From Felis catus (lineage: Eukaryota): a stretch of DNA of 64,000 bases. Position 1 is the first letter of the stretch. Every line of letters begins with the position of its first letter. Below the pieces are notes generated by a model. That model worked only from the letters and a program-made list of their open reading frames with translations. It searched no databases and was not told where the DNA came from. A program made the translations under genes and the position numbers. Positions 4,610 to 24,893 of this stretch are shown piece after piece. The DNA lies in NCBI RefSeq assembly GCF_018350175.1, contig NC_058374.1:131440001-131504000 (forward strand), written 5' to 3'.

Positions 4610-4659
<50 letters not shown>

Positions 4660-4732
4660 CCTCGTTCTGCCCCTCCCCCTCTTGTGCTGTCTCTTTCTCT
4701 ATCTCTCAAAATAAAGAAACTTAAAAAAAAAA

Positions 4733-4733
<1 letters not shown>
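4517..4733 (+). mobile_element. CanSINE with expanded (CT)n
   Basis: Head, (CT)n of about 20 units, A-tail; TSD gtgtgaaagt. Confidence 0.9.

Positions 4734-4785
<52 letters not shown>
4734..4785. repeat. (TG)26 microsatellite
   Basis: Perfect dinucleotide run. Confidence 0.98.
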
Positions 4786-4789
<4 letters not shown>

Positions 4790-4799
4790 TTATTTAAAC

Positions 4800-5420
4800 C
4801 CACGGCCGGCAGGCCTGCGTGGGGGGCAGGAACCCAGAGGCCACCGCGGGTGGCCGGAGCCGGCTTACCTGCTTCCCGCCACCGGGGTTGGGCGGGGCGG
4901 GGCCGGGGGCGGGGCCGCCACACAACCTGTGGACGACCAGGCGGCCGCCGGCCCGACAGTCGCGGGGACCGGCCGGGGGGCCTGCGGGGGAAGGGGGGCC
5001 CGGAAGCCGGGGACGGGCGAGAAAACAAACTTGGAGAGAGGAGTGACCTGGGGGCTGGGGGCGGAGTCGCGCGCGGAGGAGGAGGAGGGAGCGAGCGGCC
5101 GCCGGAGCGCGGCTGGCCCAGGAAGCGGAGAGCGCCGCCCACCCATCCGGGGAGAGAGCGGCACTGCGGGCGCAGGCAGGCTGGGCCGGGGGCTGCCGGG
5201 CCCTCGCCCCCCCCGCCGCCCCCCGACCGTGACCCCGCGGCCCCCAGCCTGCGCCCAAGATGATGAAGAGGCAGCTGCATCGCATGCGGCAGCTGGCCCA
5301 GACGGGCAGCTTGGGACGGTGAGTGTCAACCCGCGCCTTCCCGGCCCCAAGCTCACCCCCGGCCCCGGACCCTAGGGGATGAGGGGTGGGGGAGGCGGGG
5401 ACGGCTGGACAGCCGCCCTC
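4800..5420 (+). promoter_or_regulatory. SH3BP1 CpG-island promoter
   Basis: Very high CpG density; clustered GGGCGG Sp/KLF boxes at about 4889-4915, upstream of exon 1. Confidence 0.85.
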
Positions 5421-8400
5421 TGACTGGCCGGAGCCCCTCTCTTTCTCCCTCCCCTCTGGGATGCCACCCCCACCTCCCGGGGCTCTGGCCGGAGGGGCTA
5501 GGCCCTTTGGGGGAAAGGGGCACCCCCACCCCGATTGGAGCGGAGTGCAGGGAGGATCAAGGAACCTGGGTCTTCTCTGCCTCCACGGGCCTCTTGAGTG
5601 GATGATCCTCCCTGGCCTCACTTGTCCCCTCTGTACAATGGGGACAGCTGACCATCTCTGGTTGCCTGAGGGAGGGGGAGGGGCGATCAGGGCCCCAGAC
5701 CCTGGGGGAGGGGAGGAGACTAGGTCCCGTCTTGGAGGGCTGAGGGGCCTCCCTTGTCCGGCTGTGTGCCTCTTCCCCCCACCAAGCCCAGAGGCCTCCA
5801 GCTTCTCTCTCTTGCTTCTGCTTTTCCCAGCCTGGACCCAGGTGGAAACATCCCTGGGTCTCTGTTCTCCCTCCCCCCGCCCCACCCCCACCCCCCCGCC
5901 AGCCCCTGAGCCCTTGGGGTGGAAGCCAGAAGTTTGGGGAGCACCCAGGGCCTGTTTTCTCTCCTCTGCCCCCTGTGTTGCGAGTTTCCCCGTTCTCTGG
6001 GCCTCCGGGGAGGGGACTGGGTGTCCAGAGACCTGGCTCTAGTCTTCAGCTACCCAGATGCCTGTGTGAGCCTGGGCAGTCAGGCCCCCTGGCTCCGGGC
6101 CTCAGCGTCCCGTGTGTCCCCGGGCAGGGACCCAGGGCCTGCCGACCACCCCAGGCCAGAGTCCTGCGTGACTGACAGCCCAGGAGTGTGTGAGCTCACA
6201 CACTTCCCGTTCTTGGGGCCACCCTGGCCTCCTTCTCCCCGGGGTCAGCAGAAGACAGAGGCTGGGCCCTGGGGTGGCTTCTCAACTCCACTGCCTTGGG
6301 TTTCATCCGCCCTCTCGCAGGACACAGCCCTGGGTGGAGGAGGAAAAAGTCATGTATCCTATTCCCGCCCCCACGGAATGTGCTCCGACTGGGATGAGGC
6401 AGGCAGGCGGGCCACCCAGGGCGGCCTCCAACGAGGAGGGGCACTGGGAACGATCGGGGTCCAGGTGCCCTGTTGAGGGGGCAGGGGGAGGCAGGGGGTT
6501 TCCTAACCCGGGCCGCCTCAGCAGAAGCTCCTTCCTCCCCCCCGCCCAACAGCACCCCGGAGACGGCCGAGTTCCTGGGGGAGGATCTGCACCAGGTACG
6601 TGCCCGGGCGGGTGGCAGGGCAGGCCCGCGCAAGCTGTCAGCAGAGGGCCCCGCGAGGACGAGGACGCCATTTGGGGGGTCGGGTTGAGTCATTCCCCAA
6701 GCTGTTGGCCATGGGGTCTCCAGGAGGAGGGAAGAGAAAGGTGGTTCCTGCTCTGGGAAAGAACAGGGCGGTGGGGGGGGGGGGGTGAGGGGCAACAACC
6801 TGCCACGCCGCGTAAACCCAGAGCCCCCCTCGCAGGTGGAGCAGCGGTTGGAGCCAGCCAAGCGGGCGGCCCACAATGTCCACAAACGGCTGCAGGCCTG
6901 TCTACAGGGCCAGAGCGGGGCAGACATGGACAAGCGGGTGGTAAGTGGCCGGGGGGGGGGGGGGGGTGGCGGGAAGGAGGGGCCTGGACCGAACACCTCT
7001 GTCCAATGGGAGAGGGAGGTCAGGGCTGGGGTCCCCCTGCTAGTCTGAGCCTCCGACACCAAGAGGGTCCGGACTGCTCTGTCCCAAGACCCCTCGGGCC
7101 ATGTACTGATGAGGCTCTGCCTCTTACCCATCCTCTTTTGGACCCTGCCCCCATCTGCACCAACCCCCTGAGCCCAGGCCAGGCCTCGGACAGCACCTGA
7201 ACTTCTCGATGCAGTCTGCACCCAGAGCAGAGCAGAGCGGGCCCTCTGCACTGAGGCAGTGTGGGAGGGCTTCCTGAAGGAAGTGGCAGTTGGGCAGATA
7301 TTAATACTCACTGGTATTAATCAACAGCATTTGTAGACTGATTACCGCTAGTCTGCGGCTAAGATAGGTTAATGCGTTGCCTCACTTAATTGCCGACGAC
7401 ACCCCCTAGGAGGAGGCTGCCTTATTAGCACTTTGTACCGAGGAGGAAATGAAGTCAGAGAGGTAAAGTCTTAAGGTCACACAGCTAGTAAGTGGCAAAA
7501 CTGAGATTTGATCCCTGGTCTTTCCGGCCCAAGCTGGTGCTCCTAGTAACTCTCAGTGGGAGGGTTTTGAGCTCTGCAGTGACTCAGTCCAGCCACATAT
7601 GCCCTGGGGCAGGGGAAGGTCCCGGCTCCCGGGGTGTTCCCAGTGCCTTCATTCTCCTTCCAACTATGTCACCTTGGGCAAGCACCTTGCCTTCTGTTCT
7701 TGGTTTCCTAGCGTGTGAGGGTACTTGGTCATTCCTTCCTGCCCAGTTGATTGGTTTCTGGGAGGGGAAAAGGGCACCCCAGGTGGGGTGGGGTCAGGGG
7801 ACGGGGCCACAGGGAGATGTCACTCCTCCGGGCCTCGTCATCATCCGGTCTCCACTCCTACCTAAGACTGTGGCCCTCCCGGCTTCCCTCTTCCCCTGTC
7901 CACATCCAGTGCCTCGGTGGGGCTCTGCCCCCCCCCCCCCCGAGAAGGCTGCCTTGTGCTTGGGTGGGGTGGAGGGAGGCTCACTGGGGGCCCCTGCTCA
8001 CAGCCCGCCCTGCCCTTCCTGCAGAAGAAGCTCCCCCTCATGGCTCTGTCCACCACAATGGCCGAGAGCTTCAAGGAGCTGGACCCTGATTCCAGCATGG
8101 GGTGAGCAGGAACGGGGTGCCAAGCGGGGGATCTGGGCTGGGAGGGGTTCCAGGTGAGGGACGGGTGACCAGGATGGGGGTAGTTAGTGTCTTGAGCTGG
8201 GGGCGGGGGGCGGCGGCCAGGTCAGTGAGGGCGGCCAGGTCTGGGAAGGTGTTGGCTCAGCCAAGATGAAGGACAGATAGAAGGGGCAGGGGGTGACGGG
8301 GAGGGAGGAGGCCCCATCACGTGTTTCCGGACGGGAGTGAGGAGCTGTGGGGGCTGGGCCCACCGGTGTTGTATCCACAGGAAGGCCTTAGAGATGAGCT

Positions 8401-11400
8401 GTGCCATTCAGAACCAGCTGGCCCGCATTCTGGCCGAGTTTGAGATGACTCTGGAGAGGGATGTCCTGCAGCCGCTCAGCAGGCTGAGTGAGGTGACCTG
8501 CCCCCTGCCCCCTCCCCGCCCAGCTTGCCCGGCCTCGGCTCCCACCTCCGCAGCCTGCCGACCGACCCCCTCCCTCCCCGTGTACCTGCCCCCAGGAGGA
8601 GCTGCCGGCCATCCTCAAGCACAAGAAAAGCTTGCAGAAGCTGGTGTCTGACTGGAACACCCTGAAGAGCAGGTGGGAGCCATGGTCCCTGGGGGGGGGG
8701 GGGGGTCCATGCCTAGATCAGCCCATAACGGTGGCCCCAGAACCCACACTAGAACAGGGGGGGCAGGGTCCACTGGGTACTGTGTGTACTTGGGGACTCA
8801 TCCGGTCTTTAGGAACACATGTGAGGGTACATGTGAGAGTTCCTCTCTGAACATGGGTGTGCGCGTGCGCGTGCCAGCCGGGGGTGACTCCAGAGCCTGG
8901 GGTAGCTATCAGGGATCCCCCAAGATCCCTGGACTGCAGGATGCCCCCACCCTCCACTCTGGAGCTCGGTGGCCGCGATCACCAAGCCCACCGCCAGGGG
9001 GAGCCCCTGAGCACTCATGGCCCAGGCTGGGCGGAGGCCCAGGGCAAGCAGAGCTCTGGGATGTTCATCCATAAATCCCGAAACCTTGGGGGGTCAGGCA
9101 TGTGGAAGGGACACTTGGCTCTGGACATGCAACGGGGACAGTGACCCTCCCCCCCCACCTTGGGATCGTTGCCAGGCTCACTCAGGCAGCCAAGAACTCG
9201 GGCGGCGGTCAGGGCCTGGGCGGTGGCCCCGGCAGTTACAGCCACACGGCCACCGCCACCAAAGTGGAGACGCTGAAGGAGGAGGAGGAGGAACTGAAGA
9301 GGAAGGTGGAACAGTGCAAGGTGAGCGAGCACTTGGAGTTCCCTGGACGCGAGGGGGTGGCGAGGGCAGGTACTGACCCCATTTCACAGGGGAGGGAACT
9401 GAAGCTCAGAGAGGCGATGTGACTCACCCAAGGCCACACAGCTAGGAAGCAACAGAGCCCAGGATTTGAATCCAGGCCGTCAGCCTCCAAGCTGTGTGCA
9501 CTCGGCCACTATCTTGTGGCCTCTTGTGTCTACACCGTACCCGTCATTCCTGGGAGGCGGGGACTTGGGCTACTCACCACGGTCTCGGTGTGTTTGCTGA
9601 GTGAGCAGAGGAATGAATGGTGACTAAGACAAGCCACCATGCTTAGGGTATGAGGCACAGAGATGAGGACTAGAAGCCGTAAACGTCCCTTAAGAGCCGG
9701 GGTGGCTCAGTCGGTCAAACGTCTGACTCTTGATTTCGACTCAGGTCATGCTCTCGCGGCTCGTGGGTCCAAGCCCCGCATCTGGCTCTGCCCTGACAGT
9801 GCAGAGGCTGCTTGGGATTCTCTCTCTCTGGGACCCTCACCTGCTTGTGCTCTCTCTCTCTCTCTCTCTCTCTCTAAACACACAATATATATGTAAGAGT
9901 TCGAGGGGGGTCCCTGTGGGCCATCCCCAAGTGCAAACCTTGGCAGAGAGAGGAGAGTTGGCCGGGGCGTTCCACGTATAGCTTGGACGAGTCACGAACC
10001 CCTCTAGGCCTCAGCTTCCCCTTTCTGTCCCCAAGGACGAGTACTTGGCCGACCTTTACCACTTCGCCACCAAGGAGGACACATATGCCAACCACTTCAT
10101 CCACGTGAGTCCGAGAGTGGGCTCCGGCCAGTGGAACTCGGGGGTGGACACCAGGGGCCCCCTGAGACACCCTTCAAGATGTGGGAGGGAGGGGTGTGTT
10201 CTTAGGGACTCCGGGGGGGAGGCTCAGCTTCCCTCACCCACCCTGGGGCCACCCCCTTGTCCCCGCAGCTCATGGAGATCCAAGCTGATTACCATCGCAA
10301 GTCTCTGAGCTCGCTGGACACGGCCCTGGCTGAGCTGAGGGAGAACCACAGCCAAGCAGGTGGGGACCCAGGGGACCCCCCCCCCCTGCCCCCAGCCCTG
10401 CTCAGGACATGTTGAGATGCTTGCACTCCATCCTGGGAGGCAGTAGGGAGCCCCGGATGAGTTCTGAGCAGATGCGTTCCGATTCGATTTGTGACTGAGA
10501 AGTCACTCTGCCGTGCGGAGTGATGGAATGAAGGGGAACAGAACAGGAGTCGGGAGACCTTTAAGAGGCAGGAGGGAAGGGGTGATGGCCCGGGCTAGGG
10601 GCGACACAGTGGAGGTGGGTGGATTCGAGAGAGATTGGGCAAAGCAGTAGCCCTTGAGGATGTCTGGGGGTGGGTGGGGTGGGGGTTGGCTGTCCAGGGA
10701 TGGGGGGGAGCCCGGGCCACTGATCTGTCTCGTCCCTGCAGACCCCTCCCCCTCGATGACGGCCGCCCCCTTCTTCAGGGTGTATGGGGTGTCACTGGGA
10801 ACCCATTTGCAAGAGCTGGGCCGGGACATCGCCCTGCCCATCGAGGCCTGCGTCATGATGCTGCTTTCTGAGGGCATGAAGGAAGAGGTGGGGCCCGTGG
10901 GGGCAGGTCGGGAAGGGACACGGGGGCCGGAATCCTTAGAGCACAGGTGCCTGTGAGGCCACGGCCTCCTGTTGCCAAACTGACATCACGGCCCACTGAG
11001 TGATGTTCATGGGCAGCCGCTATGCCATAAACCCTTTCCACGTCTTGCTCCGTTCAGTCATCCCCAAAACCCTGGGAAGGAGCCTTCACCAGCTCCATTT
11101 TACGAGGGAGAGACGGAGGCCAAGAGGAACACGGGCCCAGTGGCACACGAGAAGGTGTCAGTAAAGCCAGGGACCCCCATGCAGTCACTGCCTCGCACTG
11201 TCCTCATCCGTCCCGTGCACCTTGCCGGCGCTGGTCTATAGGCTCCTGCCCCGAGGACAGACCCTTAGACACGGAACCTACTCGCAGAGCGACCTAGGCT
11301 TCTAGACAGTGCTGCCGGGCCTCCTTCCTCCCTTCCGCGCCCACCCAGACGCCTGTGTCCCCACCGCTTTCCCCGCTGCCCCCAGACTTCCCACTTCGCG

Positions 11401-13022
11401 CCGAGTCCTAGACCTTGAGAGTTGAGGGTGGCCACGCATCCTGTGGTCCCCACTCTGCCCACCAGACTGGGTGGGGACACAGGCCCGGACACAGACCCTG
11501 AGCGAGCCAGGGCCTCCCGGCCAGGGCGTTCTCCCCTGCCGCCCCTCTGTGACCCCCGTCCGTTTCCTCTCGCACCCCAGGGCCTCTTCCGCCTGGCCGC
11601 TGGGGCCTCGGTGCTGAAACGTCTCAAGCAGACCATGGCCTCGGACCCGCGCGGCCTGCAGGAGTTCTGCTCCGACCCCCACGCCGTGGCAGGTGCCTGC
11701 CCCGAGGAGCCCCGGGAGGAGGGCCTTCCCCCCAGATCCCTTCCCCTCAACGGCCTGAAATGCTCCCATGATAGTTTGGCTGAGGGCCTGATCATCTGCC
11801 GAGGAGACACCTCCGGAGACATAGGGGTCCTTAAAGTGGGGCCCATGATGCGTACGTACATTTTTCTGGGACCAGGTCCACCAGCCTTCGGCATTTTCTC
11901 CAAAAGGCCCATGGCCCAAAGAAATGATCAGATCTAGACACATTAGTGGGAACAAGGGCCTGGTTCCCAACAGATGGAGAGAGCTGGGCACTGGCGTGGA
12001 GGTAGGGGGCTTGGGGGACTGTGTCTAAGCCCCGCCCCCCCCCCTCCCGCCCTGCCACCGCTTCAGGTGCCCTCAAGTCCTATCTGCGGGAGCTGCCAGA
12101 GCCCTTGATGACCTTTGACCTCTATGACGATTGGATGAGGGCAGCCAGGTGAGTTTATGCTGTGGAGGGCGGGGCTGCAGAGGTGGGGCCCCAGGGCCCT
12201 GGCCTGGCTCACCCGGTCTCTCCCCCCGCCACCCAGTCTGAAAGAGCCAGGAGCCCGGCTGGAGGCCCTCCAGGAAGTGTGCAGCCGCCTCCCCCAGGAC
12301 AACCTCAGCAACCTCAGGTGAGCCCAAGCCTGCCCCCTCGGCCCGAGCAGCATTTCTGAAACCACGGCTAAAATGGCCTAGTCCTATCTTCCATCCTGAC
12401 GTTGCAGCCAAACACACACCTTGAACCTCTGAAGCCACACCACCTGGCTTCAGATTCCCACCTCTGCCACCTTGTGGTCCGAGGCAGGTGAACTGACCGC
12501 TCTGTGCCTCAGTGCCCTCATCTGGAAAACACAGAGCGTAGCAGTCCCTACCCCGCAGGGTGGCTGGGAGAGTCTCAGCTTAGCTCAATGCCTGACACAT
12601 ATATGGTGCTCAGCAGGTCAGCCGATTTAACTATTAAAACATTTTAGGGGTGCCTGGGTGGTTCAGTCGGTGGGGCATCTGACTCTTGATGTCAGCTCAG
12701 GTCGTGATCGCAACGGTTCGGGGGATCGAGCCCCGCATCGGGCTCTGTGCTAACGGCTTAGAGCCTGGAGCCTGCTTTGGATTCTGTGTCCCCCGCCCCC
12801 GCCCCTCCCCCGCTCATGCTCTGTCTTGCTCTGTCTCTCAAAAATAAATAAATGTTGGGGCGCCTGGGTGGCTCAGCCGGCTGAGCGCCCGACTTCGGCT
12901 CGGGTCGTGATCTCGCGGTTCGTGAGTCCGAGCCCCGCGTCGGGCTCCGGGCTGACGGCTCGGAGCCTGGGGCCCCCTTCGGATTCTGTGTCTCCCCGTC
13001 TCTCTGGCCCTCCCTGCTCACG

Positions 13023-13058
<36 letters not shown>

Positions 13059-16000
13059 AATAAACGTTAAAAAAAAATTTTTTTTTAATAATAAATAAAT
13101 AAATGTTAAAAGCAATCAAAAACAAATTTTAAGCCACCCGATGGGGTACCTTTGCCACTCTTTGGAAACCCCAGGCTGAGAAATTCTCAGGCCTCAAGGG
13201 CGTCAATGGGCGTTCACGGCCAAAGACGCCCTGTCCCTGGCCAAGCCCACCTTCTGCCTCCCCAGGTACCTGATGAAGTTCCTGGCACGGCTGGCCGAGG
13301 AGCAGGAGGTGAATAAAATGACGCCCAGCAACATTGCCATCGTCCTGGGGCCCAACCTGCTGTGGCCTCCCGAGAAAGAAGGGTGAGGGGCTGCAGCTCG
13401 GGGGAAGGCGGCAATCCCCACCTCACCCGTGCGCTGCTTATTTGTTCCCCCGGGCCTCAGTTTCCCCATCCTTGGAGTGGATCAAGCAGCTCCTCTTCTC
13501 CAGGCTGCCGAAGGGAGCGTGGACCCCACGGGGCTTTGGAGATGGGCATTCTGGGTGGTACTGGTAGCGGGCTGCCTGGAAGGCTGGGAGCCCAGCGATT
13601 TTCGTTCCAGCCCCGCCCCTCGACCTTCCAGAAATGCCTTTAGGAAGCTCACTCTCCGGAGCTCCCACTGCTTCCTCCGTAAATTGGAGAGAAATCATTA
13701 CCAACTTTGAGGGGTTTGGCGTGGGGAATTAGACGAGGAAATGGAGAAATGTTTTATGCACCGTAAAGGGCGAGGGGTCACTATAATTCACCCGGCCACA
13801 GACGGCACAAAGATTTCATTCGTTTGCCGAGGACGATTACTTGGGCGAGGCAGCCTAGAGCCGAGACCTACGAGGAAGAGGGTCCCGTCCCTGGCGAGCG
13901 ATGCCTGTTGTGGGTGAAGGAAGGGGAACATTTGGCACGTGGGCGACACATTCGTCATCCCCCGGTGGTCCCTGAGCTTTCTGAGAACAGGCACTTGGCG
14001 TGATTGGGCCACACAGAGTTGGGGTCGCTAACAGGTTGCAGAATGGATGGCTCACCTCCATTCCTTTTTCTGCCCCAGGGACCAGGCCCAGCTGGACGCA
14101 GCCTCAGTGTCCTCCATCCAGGTGGTGGGCGTGGTCGAGGCTCTGATACAGAACGCGGACACCCTCTTCCCGGGAGGTGAAGTTCCCCGTCTTTGTGAAC
14201 ATGTCCCCTTGTGCCCTCCTCTGCCCAGCTGGGTGCCCTCCAGACTTAGCTTCCGTCCCTGGCGGCCTCATTATGAGGCCCCGAGCAAATTGCTTCTCTG
14301 CCGTGAGCCTCCCTGTCTCCCCTGTACAATGGGGATGATCCTGCCTGCCTCGTGGGATTGTCATGAGGCTCACGTGGGAGTAGGGAGGCGATATGTGGTC
14401 CAGATAACGTCGGGGGAAAAGGCAAGAGGCCCTGATGTTGGCCGAGGCGGGAAGGCTGGCGGAGGTTCTGGAAGCTAAGACCTGCTTCCTTCTGTCTGCA
14501 GACGTCAACTTCAACGTGTCAGGCCTGTTCTCAGCCCCTGTCCCCCAGGACAAGGTCAGCAACAGGCCAGCTTCTGAGGAGCTTCCAACGGTCGCTGTGT
14601 CCACACCCGCTCCAGCCCCAGCCCCTGCCCCGGCCTCAGCGGCTGCCAGGGAAAAGTAAGGACTGATGGAAATGAATGACCCCCATCTTTGCCCCAAGAT
14701 GTCCAGCTTGAGGCACGATCTCCGGGCTTCCAACAGCATCTTGGGAAACGTCATTATTGTATTTTCCATCCCAAATACCGGGATTCCCCATTTGGAGTGG
14801 ACGGGGTGGAGACCCAGACGCTGTATTCCGCTCGGCCTCTAATGTGCCTCCTCGCTCGTCGTATGGCTGTTTACTGAGCACCCACTATGTTCCAGGCACT
14901 GTTTCAGGCCCTGGGGATTTAGGGAACTAGGGAGCGGATCAGCTGGAATTTTGTAAACACCTTCCAGTGTTCTCTTTGGTCCTTCAGATCTCGAAGGGCT
15001 CCGTCGTACATGTTGTCTCCATACCAAACAGGCACTAGTCTGTCATCACCCAGGCAGGGCGCACACCGTGACTTTTCTCAGAGGAACAAAACAGACAGAC
15101 GCTGGCCTTAGAGCTTGCTTTCCTAGGGCCGGGGAGAGAGGGCCAACCAGTACATCCATAAATGGGTACTGTCATGGCAGGCAGTGATACGTGCCCTTAC
15201 AGGAGAAGAGAGCAGGTTAGGGGGAGGGAGTGGGGAGCTGCTCTAGCCTGGGGATCAGGAAAGCCTCCCTAAAGAGGAGCCAACTGAGCAGAGACCTGGA
15301 GGAAACCCAGAAGGAGCCATGGCCGCCCCTTGTGCTTCTTGTCCGTTCTCTGGCTTCTCGTGGCTGGAACATTCAGTGGAGATCACACGGAGGCCGAGAG
15401 CCGAGGCCCTGCTTTCTACCTGCCATCCTGGCCCATGGGGACCCACCGTCACAGGGTCACGTGGAAGCCAGGGGTTCAGCGGACCCAAACTCTGGCCAAT
15501 GCCAGGAGCGTCTTCTTGAGGGAGGGGGGCCCAGCCTGGGGACAGATCCCAGGCCCAGTGACCAGGGGCAGGGGACAAGTCCTGGGAGGATCCAAAGTCA
15601 GCCTGGTGCCTTGGGAGTCTCCCCAAGATTCCAGACTTCTGGGAGATGGCCAAGCTGGACCCTGACCCTCTCCTTCTTTCACAGGATAGAGTCCGAGGCG
15701 CCCCCCAGACCAGCCTCTCCCAAGGTCAGTAGGAGCCCCTCGGAGGCAGCCACTCCAGGGGAGGACATGGCTCGAAAGAGTAAGTTGGCCAGGGGAGGGA
15801 AGGGGGGAAGAGGGTGGGCAAGGAGAGGAGCTGGGCGGTCAGACCATCTCGTGTTTTCGGACAGCTGGGAGGCCAGGAATCCAGGTGGCTAAGAGCCTAG
15901 GTTTGCTGCCTGACGCTCTGGGTTCAGATTCCGGTGCTGTGACCTTGGGCAGGGGACTTCACTGTCTGCCCCCTCAGCTTCCTCCTCTGTGTAATGAAAC

Positions 16001-17544
16001 AATAACCACACCTACCTTGTAGGGCTGTTGGGCAAATTAAACGGTGCTCTCCTGGCTGGTAGCTGGTACCCAGTAAGTGCTCGATAAAGCTCAGCCCTCC
16101 TCCTGAGCGTAGTGGGGCTGTGGAGTCCGGCCCCTCAAGAAGTCCAGAGATCAGAGTGAAGAGGTGGGATAGAGGCTTCAAAGGGCCGGTGGGCTGGGCG
16201 TGGAAAGAAACTCGGGGCTCCTCTGAGCCCCTTTGGTGCACTCACCTGTTGACTTGGCCTCAAGCCCAGCAGGTGAGAAGGCGCAGGGTTCAGATGAGGG
16301 GTCACTGCCAGTGATCAGGACACTTGGGAGGGCCCAGCCAGCCCAGGAGGCACTGGAGTTTTCTCCCTGGGGGTACAATGTAGAGCTACAGGACCCTCCG
16401 GACCAGCATGGGGTTGACAGGTCACACAGGGGCCTTCCTGCAGGAGGAGGCGTCCAGCCACCGTTCCTGGATGGGGGCAAGTGGGATAGGTGTTCACCGG
16501 GGCTCAGCACCTCAAGCCCCTGAAGGTCTTTGTGTCAGCCCTGGGAGGTCCAGGCTCTCATCCCATCTTAACGATGAGGAAACTGAGGCCCCAGGGAGGC
16601 AAGCGATTTGCCCAAAGCCCACAGTGGGTGGAGGCAGGGCTAGGACCCGTGTCCAGGCCTCTTGGCTCCTCAGCTGTCTCACGCGATCGGAACGGTGTAG
16701 CAGGGTCTCTGAAAACCAGGGTGGGTGGCTCTGGTGGCTCCTGAGCGGTGAGAGTGGCCCAAGAATCCAGAGGAACGGTGAGCGTTTCTTCATTCGGCGA
16801 CTGTGTATCGATCCGTGCCCCGCGCTGTGCTAGCCAACCCCGCACGGGATGGCCTCGCTTAGTTTCCGTTCCAGCCGGGGACTCAAGCAAAATAAAAACG
16901 GCCATGGTCGTTTCAGAGGGCAGCAGGTCCTGTGAAGAAAATCCAACAGGAAAATGTGACAGTAACTGGAGCAGGGCAGGGGAAGGGACACGGAGAGAGA
17001 GAGGCCTAAGTGTCAGGGAGCCGGCCGTGGAAACCGTGTTCCCAGCAGAAGGAATGGCAGGTACAAAGGTCCTGCGGTAGCATGGAGCTTGGTGGACTGG
17101 CCACAGGCAATGTGGATGCCTAACTGCCCCTGTCCTTCCTCCACAGCTAAGCGCCCAGCGCCAGCCCGGCCCACCATGCCGCCCCCCCAGGTCTCCAGCC
17201 CGCGCTCCTCCCCTCCAGCCCCACCCCCGCCCCCTGGCTCTGGCAGCCCCGTGACCCCCCAGGCCCTGCCCCGCCGTCTGGTCGGCAGCAGCCTCCGGGC
17301 CCCCACGGTGCCACCCCCCTTGCCTCCCAACCCCCCGCAGCCCGCCCGACGCCAGAGCCGGCGTTCGCCGGCCTCCCCGGGGCCGGCCTCCCCTAGCGCA
17401 GTGTCTCTGAGCATGCCTGTGCAGGTGGACCTAGGGGTGGCCACGGAGGAGGGACGGGCCCCTGAGGTTGTAGGCAGGGCCTCCACTCCCCCGGCCGTCC
17501 CCCCTCAACCCCGGCCCAGGAGCCTTGCCTCAGAGACCGACTGA
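5260..17544 (+). CDS. SH3BP1: SH3 domain-binding protein 1 (N-BAR + RhoGAP + Pro-rich tail), 686 aa; join(5260-5318,6553-6595,6836-6940,8025-8101,8381-8492,8596-8672,9176-9320,10036-10104,10269-10359,10742-10887,11581-11692,12067-12148,12237-12317,13266-13382,14079-14176,14502-14655,15685-15779,17147-17544)
   Basis: All 17 introns are GT-AG and phases chain correctly (2061 nt, 687 codons). Starts MMKRQLHRMRQLAQTGSLGR. RhoGAP motifs: EEGLFRLA (arginine finger), LKSYLRELPEPL, NKMTPSNIAIVLGPNLL. Tail has the 3BP-1-type Abl SH3 ligand APTVPPPLPP and a PxxxPR motif (PPQPRPR). Confidence 0.97.
9694..9895 (+). mobile_element. CanSINE in SH3BP1 intron 7
   Basis: ggtggctcagtcggtcaaacgtctgactc head, (CT)n, degenerate tail. 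Confidence 0.88.
12647..13125 (+). mobile_element. Nested CanSINEs: inner copy 12857-13092 inserted into the tail of the outer copy
   Basis: Two heads (12647, 12857); inner TSD aaataaataaatgtt on both sides. Confidence 0.92.
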
Positions 17545-17879
17545 GCTGGCGGTTTCCCCTGCGACAGTCAGCATCTCCTCCCTCCCACCGGTCTACCCAG
17601 GACACAGCCCTCGCCCTTCCCAGGGCTGGGGGCCTCCAGCCTCTGCCTACAAGTGCCTCGGTGCCCGCTGGGTCGGCCCCCCTGGCAAGGAGGACTCAGG
17701 CTAGTCCTCCACTTCCAGACCTTTTCCTCCTGAACCCACACTGGGCTTGGGGGCCCCTCACCCGACTCCCAGCTCTCTGGCAGGGTCCCAGGGGAGCCGC
17801 CGGAAGGAAGGAGGGGCCTGCCTGCCCCTACAGGACTCTTAATTGTCTCTTGCCAACGTATTTTTTTGTAAGGCTGGTA

Positions 17880-17951
17880 AATAAATTATTTTGGACAAAA
17901 CCGGAGCAGCTGCCCAAATGATAGTTGGTTTTTTTCTGCCCTCCAAATAAA
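17880..17951 (+). terminator. SH3BP1 polyadenylation signals (AATAAA at 17880 and 17946)
   Basis: Two canonical hexamers about 340 and 400 nt after the stop, each followed by T/GT-rich sequence. Confidence 0.8.
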
Positions 17952-18361
17952 GAAGCCACTTTCATAAAGGGGAAGATCTTTCCTGTTCTTTGCCTCCTTT
18001 CTTTCTTGCTGTCTGGAATGATAAGAGCCAGCATTTTTAGCTCTTACTCTGTGCTATACATTGTGCTTTTCCATGCGTGGTTTCCATGGACTCCTCTCCC
18101 TGGGAAGTGGATCCTGTCACCTTCCTACAGGTTGAGGAGACTGGGGCTCAGAAAGCGACCTGCCAGACACACAGCAAGTGAGGCATGGACGTGGAAGGAG
18201 GACGCGGGTCTGATTCTAGAGCCTGGGCCCGTCCCTCACGTCCGGAGCAATTAACTGCCTAGTGTTCCACTTTCCTCATCCGGGAAACAGTACAGCAGTT
18301 GCCACCCCAGGACTGTCGTTCCGAGAATGAAACGGGACATTCCTATAAAGACCAAAGCATA

Positions 18362-18604
18362 GGGGCGCCTGGGTGGTGCAGTCGGTTAAGCGTCCGACTT
18401 CAGCCAGGTCACGATCTCGCGGTCCGGGAGTTTGAGCCCCGCGTCAGGCTCTGGGCTGATGGCTCGGAGCCTGGAGTCTGTTTCCGATTCTGTGTCTCCC
18501 TCTCTCTCTGCCCCTCCCCCGTTCATGCTCTGTCTCTCTCTGTCCCAAAAATAAATAAACGTTGAAAAAAAAATTTAATAAAAAAAAATAATAAAAATAA
18601 ATAA
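18362..18604 (+). mobile_element. Young felid SINEC_Fc-type element
   Basis: cagccaggtcacgatc and gatggctcggagcc variants shared with the copy at 58488; perfect 16-bp TSD ataaagaccaaagcat (18345-18360 / 18605-18620). Confidence 0.95.
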
Positions 18605-19739
18605 ATAAAGACCAAAGCATCACCCTTGCACACAGAAGCGCCCCATAAGCACTGGCTCCCGTGAATGCCAATCCCCCCAACCCCTGGTGTTCTCAGAGTA
18701 GGCAGGAAAGGCTCCCTCGAAGAGCAGGGATGGGTCTGTCTGCAAACCGCTGAGGCTGCTGGGTGCTGCACCCTGAGCCAGACCCCGGCCTCAGCCCAGC
18801 ACCCAGGGAGCTCCTGGGAACAGACACGCAGGAGAGCTGACAATCAGAATCAAGTATAATGGCACCGGGAGCCCATGTGAAACCAGTTAGGGGCTGACCA
18901 TCGAACCCAGACTCATGTGTTTGTGTGTGGAGGGCACAGGTAGGCTTCGTGGAAGAGGTGATTCAAAGAGGAGTCTTCCAGGAGTTGACCAGGTGAAAAA
19001 GTCAGGGAAGAAGGAAGAACATTCCAGGCTACGGAGACCACCTACTACAGGAGCAAAAGGCCAGCGGGCATTGGGGACCGGAAATTATCTGAGCCTCAGA
19101 GAGGGTTGATAGGGTGTGGCTTTTCCCAGGTTGCTCCTGGAGGTCAGGTCTTCAGAGCCTTCTCAGAGGTCAGACAACTTGGAATTTTGACACATGCCTC
19201 CCCGAATAGGGACTTAGGCAGCTAAGTCACGCTATCGCCGCTGCCTGAGCCACTGACTACTGTTGCTCTGGCTCCTTCCCTCCCCAGGGTGCTTAGCGAC
19301 AGGCTGCCTCTCCCAGCCTGGTGACCCAGTGCCTCTCCACCCTGGCCTCGCAGTACAACCCCTATGTCATTAAAAAACAGCAAATAAATAAAGTCCTGGG
19401 CCCCACCCAATTAAGTCAGGATCTCTGGGGTGCTGCGTCGCTTTGGTATTTTTAAACAGCATTTGTCAAAGTCACCGAACTGTACATGTAAGATCTGCAC
19501 ATCTTACTTGTATGCAAATTAAACCTCAAAATACATGTTCCCCGGGGGACTCTACCAGCCAGCGTCGAGAACGACTGGTCTAGGCCCAGGGCCCCAGCGC
19601 TCAAGAAGACACTATGCGCCTCTCTCCTAATCATACCCATACGCTTCTCAGGACTTGGCTCAGAACCGGAGCGTCCAAGGTTCAGAGGGCAAGGGGTTCT
19701 GACCCAAAGGCAACATCTCCCTTGGCATCTGTTTTCCTC

Positions 19740-20810
19740 CTAGCAACTAAGCTTCTGATTGGCTGGGGAACGTAAGCGCGGCTCTCCGCTCCAGATTTTC
19801 TATTCGTAACTCTTTACTGGCCAAGAAGAACGTCAGTTTATCCTTTAAAAGGCTAGTCGGGGTTGAAACTCGGCGGCAACTGGCCTAGCAGAGCTAGGGG
19901 GAGGGGCGAAGGGCTAGGCTCGGTCATCATTGGCCCCCGCCCCTCGGCCGCGGCCGCGATTCACCGTGCTCTCCAGGCTCTGTTAGCTCGGGGCCTCGGT
20001 CCTCTCCGAGATTCTTGCTCCCATTGGCCCGCGAGCCAGGCCGTGACTCCGCCCCCTGGCCCTTCCCGCGCGTCGATTGGCAGCTGCGGGGAACGGGGCG
20101 GGCTGCGGGCGAGCGCGCCGTGCCCGCAGAGGGAGAGCCGCGCGGCGTGCGGGCGTGCGAGCGGCCGGCCGGCTGCATGGCGCGCTGCGAGCGGCTGCGC
20201 GGCGCGGCCCTGCGCGACGTGCTGGGCCGGACGCAGGGGGTCCTGTTCGACTGCGACGGGGTGCTGTGGAACGGCGAGCGCGCCGTGCCGGGCGCCCCGG
20301 AGCTGCTGGAGCGGCTCGCGCGGGCGGGCAAGGCGGCGCTGTTCGTGAGCAACAACAGCCGGCGCGCGCGGCCCGAGCTGGCTCTCCGCTTCGCGCGCCT
20401 CGGCTTCGGGGGCCTGCGCGCCGAGCAGCTCTTCAGCTCCGCGCTGTGCGCCGCGCGTTTGCTGCGCCAGCGCCTGCTGGGGCCGCCGGAGGTGCCGGGC
20501 GCCGTGTTCGTGCTGGGCGGCGAGGGGCTGCGCGCCGAGCTGCGCGCCGCGGGGCTGCGCCTGGCGGGGGACCCCGGCGAGGACTCGGGCGCGGCCCCGC
20601 GCGTGCGCGCCGTGCTCGTGGGCTACGACGAGCACTTCTCCTTCGCCAAGCTGAGCGAGGCGTGCGCGCACCTGCGCGACCCCGACTGCCTGCTCGTGGC
20701 CACCGACCGCGACCCTTGGCACCCGCTCAGCGATGGCAGCCGGACCCCCGGTGAGCGCGGGGCTGGCGGGGAAGCAGGTGGGGTGGCAACCTGCGCTTCA
20801 CCTCCGCGCC
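19740..20810 (+). promoter_or_regulatory. PDXP CpG island and promoter with four reverse CCAAT boxes
   Basis: ATTGG at about 19758, 19929, 20023 and 20076 plus GC boxes; dense CpG through exon 1. Confidence 0.85.
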
Positions 20811-23800
20811 GAGGGGAGAGGGGCGAGGAAGGGGTGTCTCCGGGTGACAGGTGGGGAACCGGAGAGATGCGAGGGCGGTTCCCACCCTGCAGGAGCCCAG
20901 GGGAGCGTTTTCATGGCCACGTCTGGTAATTCTTGAAACTGCCACCAGTCGAGGGGCAGTAGTAGGGTCTCCGTTTAACAGATGAGGAGACTGAGGCCCG
21001 TTGCGGTTCAGGGGGGTTGCAGGCGGAATCCAGGTCCTCGACCCCCCCAGCCCTAGCCTTACCGAACCAGCCTCAGGGATTCCTGTCATTTTGTCCTACC
21101 CGCCATCGGGGTGAGGTCGGAGAGTTGGGAACAAAGCCTGGGAGGATTGTCCCCCCCGTCGAGCGGTTGGAACACCATTGGCAGCGGCAGATTGTAGGTG
21201 GGTGTGCGGGGAGCCTTCGAGGTGGATGGAGTTTGACCCAGGGCCCTGTAATCTTAAATTACATAACGTCGGAGCATCTCTGTCCTGGGTGTAGAATGGG
21301 AATGCTAACCATGCCAGTTCCCTCAGAGGGAGAGTGATCAGGGTGAGTGCCTGGCACATAGTAGGTGCTCAGATGGTGTGGGTTGTATCCAGAGCCCTCT
21401 CCTGTTAGTACAGGGCTTCATGAAGTACCTTGCTGTTTGTTCTTAGTTTCTAAATTACTCTGGAGCTGGGAGTTACTGTCCCGTTTCTCAGATAAAGAAA
21501 CTGAGGCTAAGAGAGGGGAAGTGAGCTGCCCAAGAACAGGAAGACCTGAACTTGGCTCTTGTGGCCACCCCAGCCCCCACCCCAGCCCCATCCAAGGCTC
21601 TGTTTGCTGCTGTCATCTGGATGTTCAGGCCTGCAGAGGAGGCGGGAGCAGGTGGAGGCTCCTACATCTTGGAGGGTTTGAATCAGTCAAGGGCAGACGG
21701 TGGCAGAAGCTGACAGTGGGGAGTGTGTGTGGACAAGTCACTACCCAAGTCAGGAGGCTGAAGGTAGGGACAGGTCTCCCATCGTTCCCTCCTCGCTGGT
21801 CACCTGGGCCATGCTATGAAAAGTGAGTTTCTCCTTGGAGGCTCACGGTTCAGGTTAAGACTGGGTTAAGGGGCCCTCTAGGACTCAGGAAGGGTGGTGT
21901 GGACGAGCCCGAGAGAGGGGCCAGGCCCTGCCTACGCCTGCCTGCCCCTTTCATCTCTGGCTCCACCTGATTGGGTCACTGGCCCTGTTGATTGTTCCCA
22001 CAACCTAGAGGGGGAAGCAGAGGCTCAGCCGTGTTTGTGCACAGCTGAAAGGCGGCTTTGAAACGGTGGTATAGAAATAAACTAATAAAGGCCCCGTCGT
22101 GCGTAAAATCTGAACTAACGCAGCGGGGGTCTGTCACCCCCGTTTCCCCCTCCGTTCCCCTTCCCTGGTGGGTCTCCTAAATGTGTGTTTACCTTCTTGC
22201 CCACATGGCGGTCACTTGAACTGGCAAATAGAAATGCCTGCTGTCTGAGGACTATGTCACCACTAAAACACGTGACAGCCTTGGATGACAGGATGTTAAA
22301 TGAAGTGGGATGATGGTAGTCTGAGGACAGAGCTCTCTTCACAGTTGCCCCTGCCAGGATGCCCGCTCCCCTACGGTAGGGATCCCTGTTGCATTCACTG
22401 CTCTGTGCCCAGTGCCTAGCATAGAGCCTGGTAAATATTGGCTGAGGGGATAAAGTGGGCTGGGCGGGGGCTAAGGGCGATCAGCTCTGTCCTGGTGGGA
22501 AAGGAGATCGCCGACCCGGCCGAGACCAATCTTGAGCCGAGCAAAACACTTTGGGGGTGACTCAGTTGAGCCCTTCCCATCCTGGAAGGAATTTCTAACC
22601 AAGGAGGCAAATGGCTTTTCTTCCCTACCCAGTTATCAAGAAAGCAAGCACATTCTAGGTCGGATGTCAAGGCGAACCTCCCAGGAGTGTTGCTCCGGGT
22701 CAGCTCCGCCCTGGTCCTGTGACACTGGGGAAGTTCCTCCTCCTCCCCCTCCTCCTCTGGGGATTTGCTGGGCTGAGGATTTCTTGTCTTTTTTTTATTT
22801 TTGAGAGAGACAGAGACAGATCATGAACAGGGGTGGGGAGGGGTGGGGCAGAGAGAGAGAGAGAGAGAGGGAGACAGAATGGGAAGCAGGCTCCAGGCTC
22901 TGAGCTGTCAGCACAGAGCCCGATGCGGTGCTCGAACTCACGGACCATGAGATCATGACCCGAGCTGAAGTCGCATGCTTAACCGACGGAGCCACCCAGG
23001 CGCCCTGAGGATTTCTTGCTTTTGAGCCTGCTTTACCGTTCTGTAACTTCGGCTTGACTGCTCAGAATGTCACCCTTTGTGAAAGGAGAGAGGCCCAGGG
23101 CATTTGGGGTCAACCCAGTGGTGTACTGACAATTGTTTCATAACTGGGGGGGGGGGGGGAGGGAGGGGGCTTAACTGATACCATTTCCCAATTTCTGTGG
23201 CACAAGTACTCCCACCATGGCCAATTTCAAGCTGCCAGCATAAAGTCACTGAACTGTGGAGTTGGGAAGGTTTGTGCACACACCATTCATTATACAGTAT
23301 TTCCATCATTACAGATGTAAGCAATCTCAAGAGGATAGATGATGCTAAGGTAATTAGGAAGAAATGAGTTTTGAGAACTTAGTGCCTTTGTTTTCAACAG
23401 TTAATTTGACTGTACGTTTAGACGGTAAGTTGACTTTTCATCGTGGCTTTCACAAGCAGTTCACCAAATTCCTGAAAGTGAAGCACTCAGCACTCCCAAG
23501 CCGGGACAAGCCGGCCCAGCGCGTGACTGGGTCGGACCCACCCGAACACATACCCTTTGTCTGCTGCTCGCGAAGCTGTGCGGCCCCGGATAAGTTACTC
23601 AGGGTCACAGAGCGTCAGCTTTCTCATCCGTGAAATGGGCTTTCGTGAGCACCCAGGACAGCCCACTTGAGAATGTGCTCCGTAAATAGTGATTATCATC
23701 ATCGTTGGTTCAGGGACATTAATGCGAAGGCAGAACCTTCTGGCACAAAGATGTGCCTGTGGGACGGGCACAGTGGACTCATTGTGTGGGGCAGCATGGT

Positions 23801-24893
23801 ACGGGGCTGGGAGTCAGGACTGCCCTTCTCTAAACAGTCCTCCTATTGTTAAATTCTTGGGCATGTCCACAGTTTTGCTTATTATAGTTATTGGGGCCGC
23901 GGACATCTTCAGGCATGTAGCTTTTTGTCTCCGGTTTGAATTTCTCTGCCTGTGATCGCTTTCCCGGCCGAGGCCGACGGGGGCAGAGGTGCGAACGTCT
24001 CTGTGCCCTGCTGCGTTCCAAAAGGGCTGTGCCAGTTTCTGATGCCAGGAGCCCACATTCCTGTGGCGGTAACCACACTGCTGTCCGTTAAGTACTTTCC
24101 GCTTTCCAAACCGCTTGCCCCGGCGAAGCCCACAGCACCTCTTGAAGGTGGGCAATTATCACTTGGATCCTCCTTTTCCGGTGAGTCCAAGGAAACTCAG
24201 AGAGGGTCCCGTGGCTTGCCCAAAGGCACACAGCTGCCAGGGTCCAACAGTGAACCCCAGACGGGACTGGCTGAGCCAGGCCCGGTTACACGCAGTGGCT
24301 CATTCAGCCCCTACCGGGCCGTGTTCGCGATGGGAAAACGGAGGCACAGCGAGGTTAGGTGGCCTTCCCGAGGAGGGCGGAGCTGACGGAGCCTGAATCC
24401 AGGCATCTGGTCGCAGTCTGTACTCTTAACCACTACACGAAGACTGGGAAGATTTTGACCCATTGCAGTGCCTCATTTAACCCCCGTGCCACGCCGCCTC
24501 CCTGGAATTCCGTTTCCAAGCCTGCATGCCTCCCCTGCGACCGCTCCGCACTGACCACGTCTCCGTCTCCCTGCAGGCACTGGGAGCCTGGCTGCTGCAG
24601 TGGAGACCGCCTCGGGCCGCCAGGCCCTGGTGGTGGGCAAGCCCAGCCCTTACATGTTCGAGTGTATCACGGAGCACTTCAGCGTGGACCCCACCCGCAC
24701 GCTCATGGTGGGTGACCGCCTGGAGACCGACATCCTCTTCGGCCACCGCTGTGGCATGACCACCGTGCTCACGCTCACAGGCGTCTCCCGCCTGGAGGAG
24801 GCCCGGGCCTACCTGGCGTCTGGCCAGCACGACCTCGTGCCCCATTACTATGTGGAGAGCATCGCGGACTTGATGGAGGGGTTGGAGGACTGA
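20177..24893 (+). CDS. PDXP: Pyridoxal phosphate phosphatase / chronophin, 296 aa; join(20177-20750,24577-24893)
   Basis: MARCERLRGAALRDVLG start; HAD motifs I FDCDGVLW, II SNNS, III GKPS, IV GDRLETD; phase-1 GT-AG intron; 891 nt total. Confidence 0.98.
22787..23005 (-). mobile_element. CanSINE in PDXP intron
   Basis: Full length; TSD tgaggatttcttg. Confidence 0.93.
23117..23529. mobile_element. MER63-like non-autonomous hAT DNA transposon
   Basis: Degenerate TIRs cagtggtgtactg...cagcgcgtgactg; internal actcccaccatggccaatttcaagct...gtcactgaac..ggagttgggaag matches the recalled MER63 consensus. Confidence 0.7.

Follow-up and report, generated by a model that had tools for sequence, protein, structure and literature searches.

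A 43-nt exon would select between two reading frames of exon 1 in cat SH3BP1, and the CUG-initiated frame appears labile among mammals

Introduction

Exon 1 of the cat SH3BP1 gene can be read in two overlapping frames, and a short second exon would decide which of them enters the BAR domain. The question raised by this locus is whether the second frame, which would begin at a CUG codon, has been kept by selection across mammals, as a preliminary description of this DNA had proposed, or whether it is a by-product of a GC-rich leader.

A switch that couples a splice choice to a start codon is already known from human, where it was reported in 2013, and the arrangement in the cat is its orthologue. 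In human SH3BP1, the excision of exon 2 moves the di-methionine start out of frame (Huang et al. 2013, PMC3564530). Mutagenesis placed the initiation of human BARGIN at a CTG (L1) and not at V13, and the mechanism as a whole was supported by mutagenesis together with mass spectrometry. In that paper, the BARGIN/BGIN products are a long form of 677 aa from the CTG, with a leader of 42 aa, and a short form of 605 aa from M73, while the tail is the 104 aa encoded by exon 2 of PDXP. An antibody against the leader detected a band of about 74 kDa in brain tissue and in Neuro 2A and SH-SY5Y cells (PMC3564530). Poly-ubiquitin binding by the tail is reported there for the human protein only, and deletion of the 42-aa leader, given as unpublished results, was without effect on BAR dimerisation. 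According to Table 1 of the same paper, human, chimpanzee and mouse have the CUG frame intact, whereas it is non-conserved in cow and interrupted by an in-frame stop in rat; its status in dog, horse, rabbit and rhesus is given as unknown. In the open literature, to which our survey was confined, we found no felid or wider comparative study of SH3BP1 or BARGIN.

Results

The window analysed, a stretch of 64,000 nt of Felis catus DNA (contig NC_058374.1, positions 131,440,001 to 131,504,000), contains SH3BP1 on the plus strand, as are all features described here. A spliced model with AG/GT-bounded exons, starting at AUG-5260 and including exon 2, encodes 686 aa, and all 686 of 686 residues are identical to those of Felis catus XP_023113257.2. 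Exons 5-18, which encode the BAR, RhoGAP and proline-rich tail regions, lie at 8381-17544, and Pfam recognises a BAR domain from residue 2 and a RhoGAP domain in the 686-aa protein. The last cat exon (17149-17541) is 5 codons shorter than in most other felids listed (686 versus 691 aa). SH3BP1 lies directly 5' of PDXP (chronophin; 20177-24893, with its start at 20177) on the same strand, which is the gene order of the BARGIN locus. By genomic arithmetic, exon 2 of PDXP (24577-24893), which encodes a 104-aa HAD module, continues the frame of exon 17 of SH3BP1 (15685-15779) and would provide the BARGIN tail. A search of the cat's own genome for a second copy or retrocopy of exon 1 found none, with a single match. 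Exon 1 is set in a CpG island at 4800-5400 (GC 78%, CpG observed/expected 0.74). Just upstream of the island, CT and GT microsatellites and a SINE-like tail occupy 4617-4787.

The canonical start of SH3BP1 (Met-Met) and the coding part of exon 1 occupy 5260-5318, as established by the identity to the annotated protein. The alternative frame begins at a CTG (5181-5183) that is homologous by position to L1 of human BARGIN and stands in a strong context, with A at -3 and G at +4. From there, 46 stop-free codons (5181-5318) run to the GT donor after 5318 and reach it in phase 0, in full agreement with the preliminary description; 26 of them lie in the 5' UTR and 20 overlap the AUG frame. The proline-rich leader encoded by the 46 codons had no match in Pfam. 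Inside the leader, a C-rich tract with runs of C8 and C6 (5207-5225) holds the extra 12-13 nt of the cat and sets the frame of the CTG, with the placement of the indel deduced from the translated ORFs of other mammals. The tract is followed by a GTG (5229-5232; V17, equivalent to human V13) that overlaps a TGA at 5230, which is in the AUG-5260 frame. The previously noted difference of 4 codons from the human leader agrees with the residue numbering in PMC3564530 (V13, M73 and 42 aa versus V17, M77 and 46 aa in the cat), and such a multiple-of-three difference has a prior of one in three.

Exon 2 (6553-6595) is 43 nt long (3n+1), with AG/GT bounds and a good polypyrimidine tract, and its skipping shifts the frame. 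The phases of exons 1 and 2 are complementary because the canonical frame must continue across them. Exon 3 (6836-6940; 105 nt) contains AUG-6926 and the TG of a junction stop, while exon 4 (8025-8101) contributes the A of that stop and also carries a second stop at 8087-8089. With exon 2 included, AUG-5260 leads to the 686-aa SH3BP1, and the CUG frame leads to an out-of-frame overlapping ORF of 116 aa that terminates at 8087-8089. With exon 2 skipped, the AUG-5260 frame ends after 54 aa at the TGA made of 6939, 6940 and 8025 across the exon 3/4 junction, and the CUG-5181 frame, again by genomic arithmetic, is open into the BAR frame. These outcomes of inclusion and skipping are the ones that had been described for this DNA before. 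In the peptide of exon 2, the canid, vespertilionid/miniopterid bat and kangaroo-rat records (P0012, P0024, P0037, P0064, P0159) are two residues longer owing to a short duplication; an exon 2 longer by two codons would measure 49 nt and so remain 3n+1, which continuity of the canonical frame demands.

Without exon 2, the BAR frame is reachable only from CUG-5181 or AUG-6926. The latter encodes M77, the first in-frame methionine of the CUG form, and lies in exon 3, as expected of a BARGIN gene. A short form starting at AUG-6926 had been suggested earlier, and the codon is indeed in frame and M77 corresponds to human M73. However, its use would require leaky scanning past four AUGs (5260, 5263, 5284 and 6876), and since it sits 13 nt upstream of the stop of the short ORF, ordinary re-initiation is unlikely. 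The predicted exon-2-skipped products with the PDXP tail are 671 aa (from CUG-5181) and 595 aa (from AUG-6926), and the predicted CUG form with the SH3BP1 tail is 698 aa. Any CUG form would exchange BAR residues 1-34 for the proline-rich leader. It is thus possible that the cat, judged from its DNA, could make the alternative BARGIN protein of the human type.

We next compared these features with chance expectation. The 138-nt leader, at 78% GC, had no stop in 61% of the 20,000 base shuffles made of it; with the protein of the AUG frame held fixed, its expected openness is about 82% (0.88 × 0.93). When the 190 nt that precede the AUG (5070-5259) were shuffled 5,000 times, 27% of the shuffles had at least one CTG in strong context. 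The 116-aa ORF overlaps about 89 codons of coding sequence, compared with 84, 81 and 79 for other open stretches in its frame. The leader, the CTG and the 116-aa ORF mostly do not exceed chance by much. Two complementary arms, 5168-5191 and 5233-5256, flank the leader; the CUG falls within the 5' arm, and the 3' arm, which is variable in other mammals, stops just short of the AUG. The hairpin that these arms could form was not more stable than those of shuffled sequences (z = -0.50; 55 of 200 shuffles were as good).

The state of the second frame in other mammals was examined with gene-caller ORFs translated from mammalian contigs in the frame of the leader, so that CTG-to-GTG spacing was deduced from peptide motifs and not from DNA. 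Of the 383 candidates in a first ORF search, 6 were matches. Searching 1.84 billion representatives with a profile brought 9 matches, namely 5 already found, 2 new ones and 2 unrelated repeat proteins (P0127 and P0130), which were dropped. The leader motif was present in eight clusters, of which one was without upstream sequence (cluster 7, P0128/P0144, which start at the Val codon), one was felid-like and six were non-felid and informative. The count omits eight cluster members whose sequence does not extend to the leader motif (P0133-P0136, P0137-P0139 and P0143) as well as P0035 (camel), whose gene model switches frame inside exon 1. The felid-like cluster, P0001, is 96% identical and has the same CTG-to-GTG spacing as the cat, 48 nt.

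In all six informative non-felid clusters (P0002, P0132, P0004, P0005, P0006 and P0129), the homologous CTG position is out of frame, a count that includes the close relatives P0005 and P0006 and is subject to shared ancestry and to possible errors in a homopolymer-rich tract. Clusters 2, 3 and 6 are supported by 17 contigs, 7 contigs and 4 sequences, respectively. The spacing, as read from the motifs, is 35 nt in five of the six and 34 nt in the other, compared with 36 nt in human and 48 nt in the cat; the cat differs from the 35-nt class by 13 nt, not 12. The CTG in these clusters is either lost or out of frame, in which case it would head an ORF of 12 or 22 codons; in the 35-nt class, a CUG would meet the equivalent of the TGA at 5230 after 12 codons. 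Because the query favoured in-frame relatives, the bias of the search runs against the out-of-frame result. Three further searches covered other material. The exact 26-nt exon 1 pattern was found in 0 metagenome contigs, a profile scan for mammalian exon 1 DNA gave 598 pattern matches with 0 confirmed relatives, and a whole-ORF alignment search restricted to proteins of 687-2000 aa matched 0 of 7,976, which is uninformative on the leader.

The 20 codons shared by the two frames provide a second view of constraint. The alternative frame varies at 8 of these positions among the eight clusters, including Leu-Pro and Gly-Trp replacements, and at 6 of the 8 the changes are silent in the AUG frame, in a small sample with no rate control. 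The AUG frame varies at 4 of the 20 positions among 128 annotated proteins. This pattern is what selection on a single frame would give, and within the limits of this sample the residues of the second frame show no conservation beyond that imposed by the main frame. The start codon, for its part, is not in frame across mammals. The CUG frame appears to be labile, being intact in human, chimpanzee, mouse and cat and broken in rat, cow and the six mammalian clusters, and the CUG start is likely not a conserved mammalian feature. Frameshifts, stops or loss of the CUG are frequent in other mammals, and the proposed selection on this frame across mammals is not supported, given the cow (non-conserved) and rat (stop) entries of Table 1 of PMC3564530 and the six out-of-frame clusters. 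That the offset between cat and human is a multiple of three may be coincidental or may reflect a secondary regain.

A single lead might save the selection idea in an altered form. A leucine further upstream, in the part homologous to the CpG island before 5181, has as its counterpart in the window an out-of-frame CTG, yet it shares the alternative frame of exon 1 in all six non-felid clusters, in a sample biased by the fact that only two frames are open there and that the ORFs were selected for being open. It is located 53-63 codons before the conserved Val, and in three clusters it is in frame by way of compensating frameshifts. These observations could mean that the frame was kept while its start moved.

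Annotated isoforms were surveyed in protein databases. Of 165 BAR-motif proteins of at least 300 aa, the canonical start together with exon 2 is seen in 133 and a start at the exon 3 Met in 10; the other 22 are of other types. None of the 165 joins the leader to exon 3, which is weak evidence since annotation pipelines seldom use CUG. The models with a PDXP tail have the canonical start with exon 2 in 9 of 12 cases and the exon 3 Met start in the remaining 3 of 12; with exon 2 retained in the 9, the chimeric tail in these predictions is independent of the N-terminal switch. Predictions of SH3BP1-PDXP read-through that retain the canonical N-terminus come from tarsier, camel, hedgehog, lemur, hippopotamus and several primates (P0027, P0029, P0045, P0070, P0115, P0174, P0178, P0181, P0191). 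An equivalent read-through product in the cat, joining 15779 to 24577, would have 659 aa. Neither a PDXP tail nor an exon 3 Met start was present in the 13 felid records listed for the P0008 cluster (15 of its 26 members listed) or in P0009 and P0010.

Discussion

We propose, with a probability of roughly 0.7, that at the 5' end of cat SH3BP1 the 43-nt exon 2 chooses which frame of exon 1 enters the BAR domain, as in human BARGIN, and that a GC-rich leader likely gives rise to the CUG frame as a lineage-labile by-product, without selection for that frame across mammals. The preliminary description was right to see an orthologue of human BARGIN with a frame toggle in exon 2; it was the extension to selection across mammals that found no support. 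By the established rules of scanning and nonsense-mediated decay, most scanning ribosomes would bypass the CUG and initiate at 5260 or 5263. The mRNA that includes exon 2 would then yield SH3BP1 plus a minor out-of-frame CUG product. The mRNA that skips it would yield mostly the 54-aa peptide and would be a target of nonsense-mediated decay, with at most a minor CUG-initiated product, and CUG initiation would be the only route to a long product. The in-frame state of the cat probably arose by slippage in the C-rich tract. The by-product reading is supported by the six out-of-frame clusters, the breakage in rat and cow, the drift at silent sites, the 61-82% openness expected by chance, the 9 of 12 PDXP-tailed models that retain exon 2 and the reported lack of effect of leader deletion on BAR dimerisation. 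Counting against it are the intact frame in human, chimpanzee, mouse, cat and the felid-like P0001, the band of about 74 kDa recognised by the leader antibody in PMC3564530, and the upstream leucine that is in frame in all six non-felid clusters.

An alternative that we regard as unlikely, yet as the strongest competitor, is that cats make a real CUG-initiated long form of BARGIN as human and mouse do, felids having retained or recovered a frame that several other lineages lost. The cat genome has every prerequisite for this, including the in-frame 104-aa tail from PDXP exon 2, the CUG context is strong, and the 48-nt spacing is shared by the window and P0001. However, the felid records described above carry neither the PDXP tail nor the exon 3 Met start, the join of leader to exon 3 is missing from all 165 long proteins (though automatic annotation rarely uses CUG), and an in-frame state has a one-in-three prior to begin with. 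A more elaborate history would have felids regaining the CUG frame by a 13-nt slippage insertion after an ancestral loss of one base, while other lineages keep the exon 1 frame from a CUG further upstream, so that a second N-terminus is maintained by start turnover and not by sequence conservation; this combination strikes us as quite improbable.

The turnover component can also be taken by itself, as selection across mammals for a second frame that stays open while its non-AUG start changes, from 5181 in primates, mouse and cat to a CUG about 130 nt further upstream elsewhere. Its attraction is an upstream Asp-Leu-Gly motif that is in frame in six of six non-felid clusters, three of them by compensating frameshifts relative to the window. 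Against this, the upstream site has only two of the three frames open, and openness was the property by which the ORFs came to be found, which biases the set. Three of the clusters are accounted for by shared ancestry, conservation is lacking in the intervening protein sequence, and the overlap region drifts at silent sites, with an in-frame stop in rat (Table 1 of PMC3564530). We consider this version very improbable. Least probable of all in our estimate is a purely regulatory role, in which the CUG is an upstream start that damps SH3BP1, heading the 116-aa overlapping ORF in the cat and a 12-codon uORF in the 35-nt class, with exon 2 skipping as an off-switch through nonsense-mediated decay. 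Both short products do stop far upstream of later junctions, and in every cluster, whatever the frame, one can recognise the translated motifs that surround the CTG. But the CTG itself is not readable from proteins, and the three frame outcomes give ORFs so unlike in length and overlap that drift fits better than one regulatory design. The toggle with a labile by-product frame is our preferred reading.

Taken for itself, this reading adds little that is new, the cat being one more species whose DNA would permit the known BARGIN mechanism. What it does contribute is a negative finding: the CUG frame appears labile among mammals, and model animals would thus differ in their capacity for the long BARGIN. 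If the cat frame were in truth a selected regain, it would offer a rare natural test of whether a recoded leader is functional, a point that PMC3564530 leaves open.

The cat gene can be placed among known systems on several counts. It has in common with human BARGIN (PMC3564530) the order of SH3BP1 then PDXP, the frameshift by excision of exon 2, a CUG at the homologous position, an in-frame Val and first Met at a 4-codon offset and the 104-aa tail from PDXP exon 2. The two differ in leader length (46 codons versus 42) and in the sizes of the products (predicted 671 and 595 aa versus 677 and 605 aa), and whereas expression and CUG use were demonstrated for the human protein, the cat form is predicted from genome sequence. 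Canonical SH3BP1, which belongs to the BAR-RhoGAP family with RICH1 and RICH2, corresponds to the exon-2-included model from AUG-5260, and the CUG form would differ from it at BAR residues 1-34. CDKN2A (INK4a/ARF) and GNAS (XLas/ALEX) contain dual-coding exons in which both frames are kept across many mammals. SH3BP1 is like them in that one stretch of exon is read in two frames set by start site and splicing, and unlike them in that its second frame loses its start or its frame in many lineages. Translated human non-AUG extensions greatly outnumber the phylogenetically supported ones (Fedorova et al. 2022, PMC9789052), with the qualification, from an addendum (PMC10764858), that the scoring was less sensitive than intended. 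SH3BP1 and BARGIN had 0 matches in the searched supplementary files of PMC9789052 (all but two) and 0 in the supplement of PMC11317171. As with the non-AUG N-terminal extensions without mammalian selection described in PMC9789052, the cat sequence has a non-AUG start, a GC-rich leader and patchy conservation, a situation presented there as usual; unlike them, its leader would join the main frame only through the skipping of an exon.
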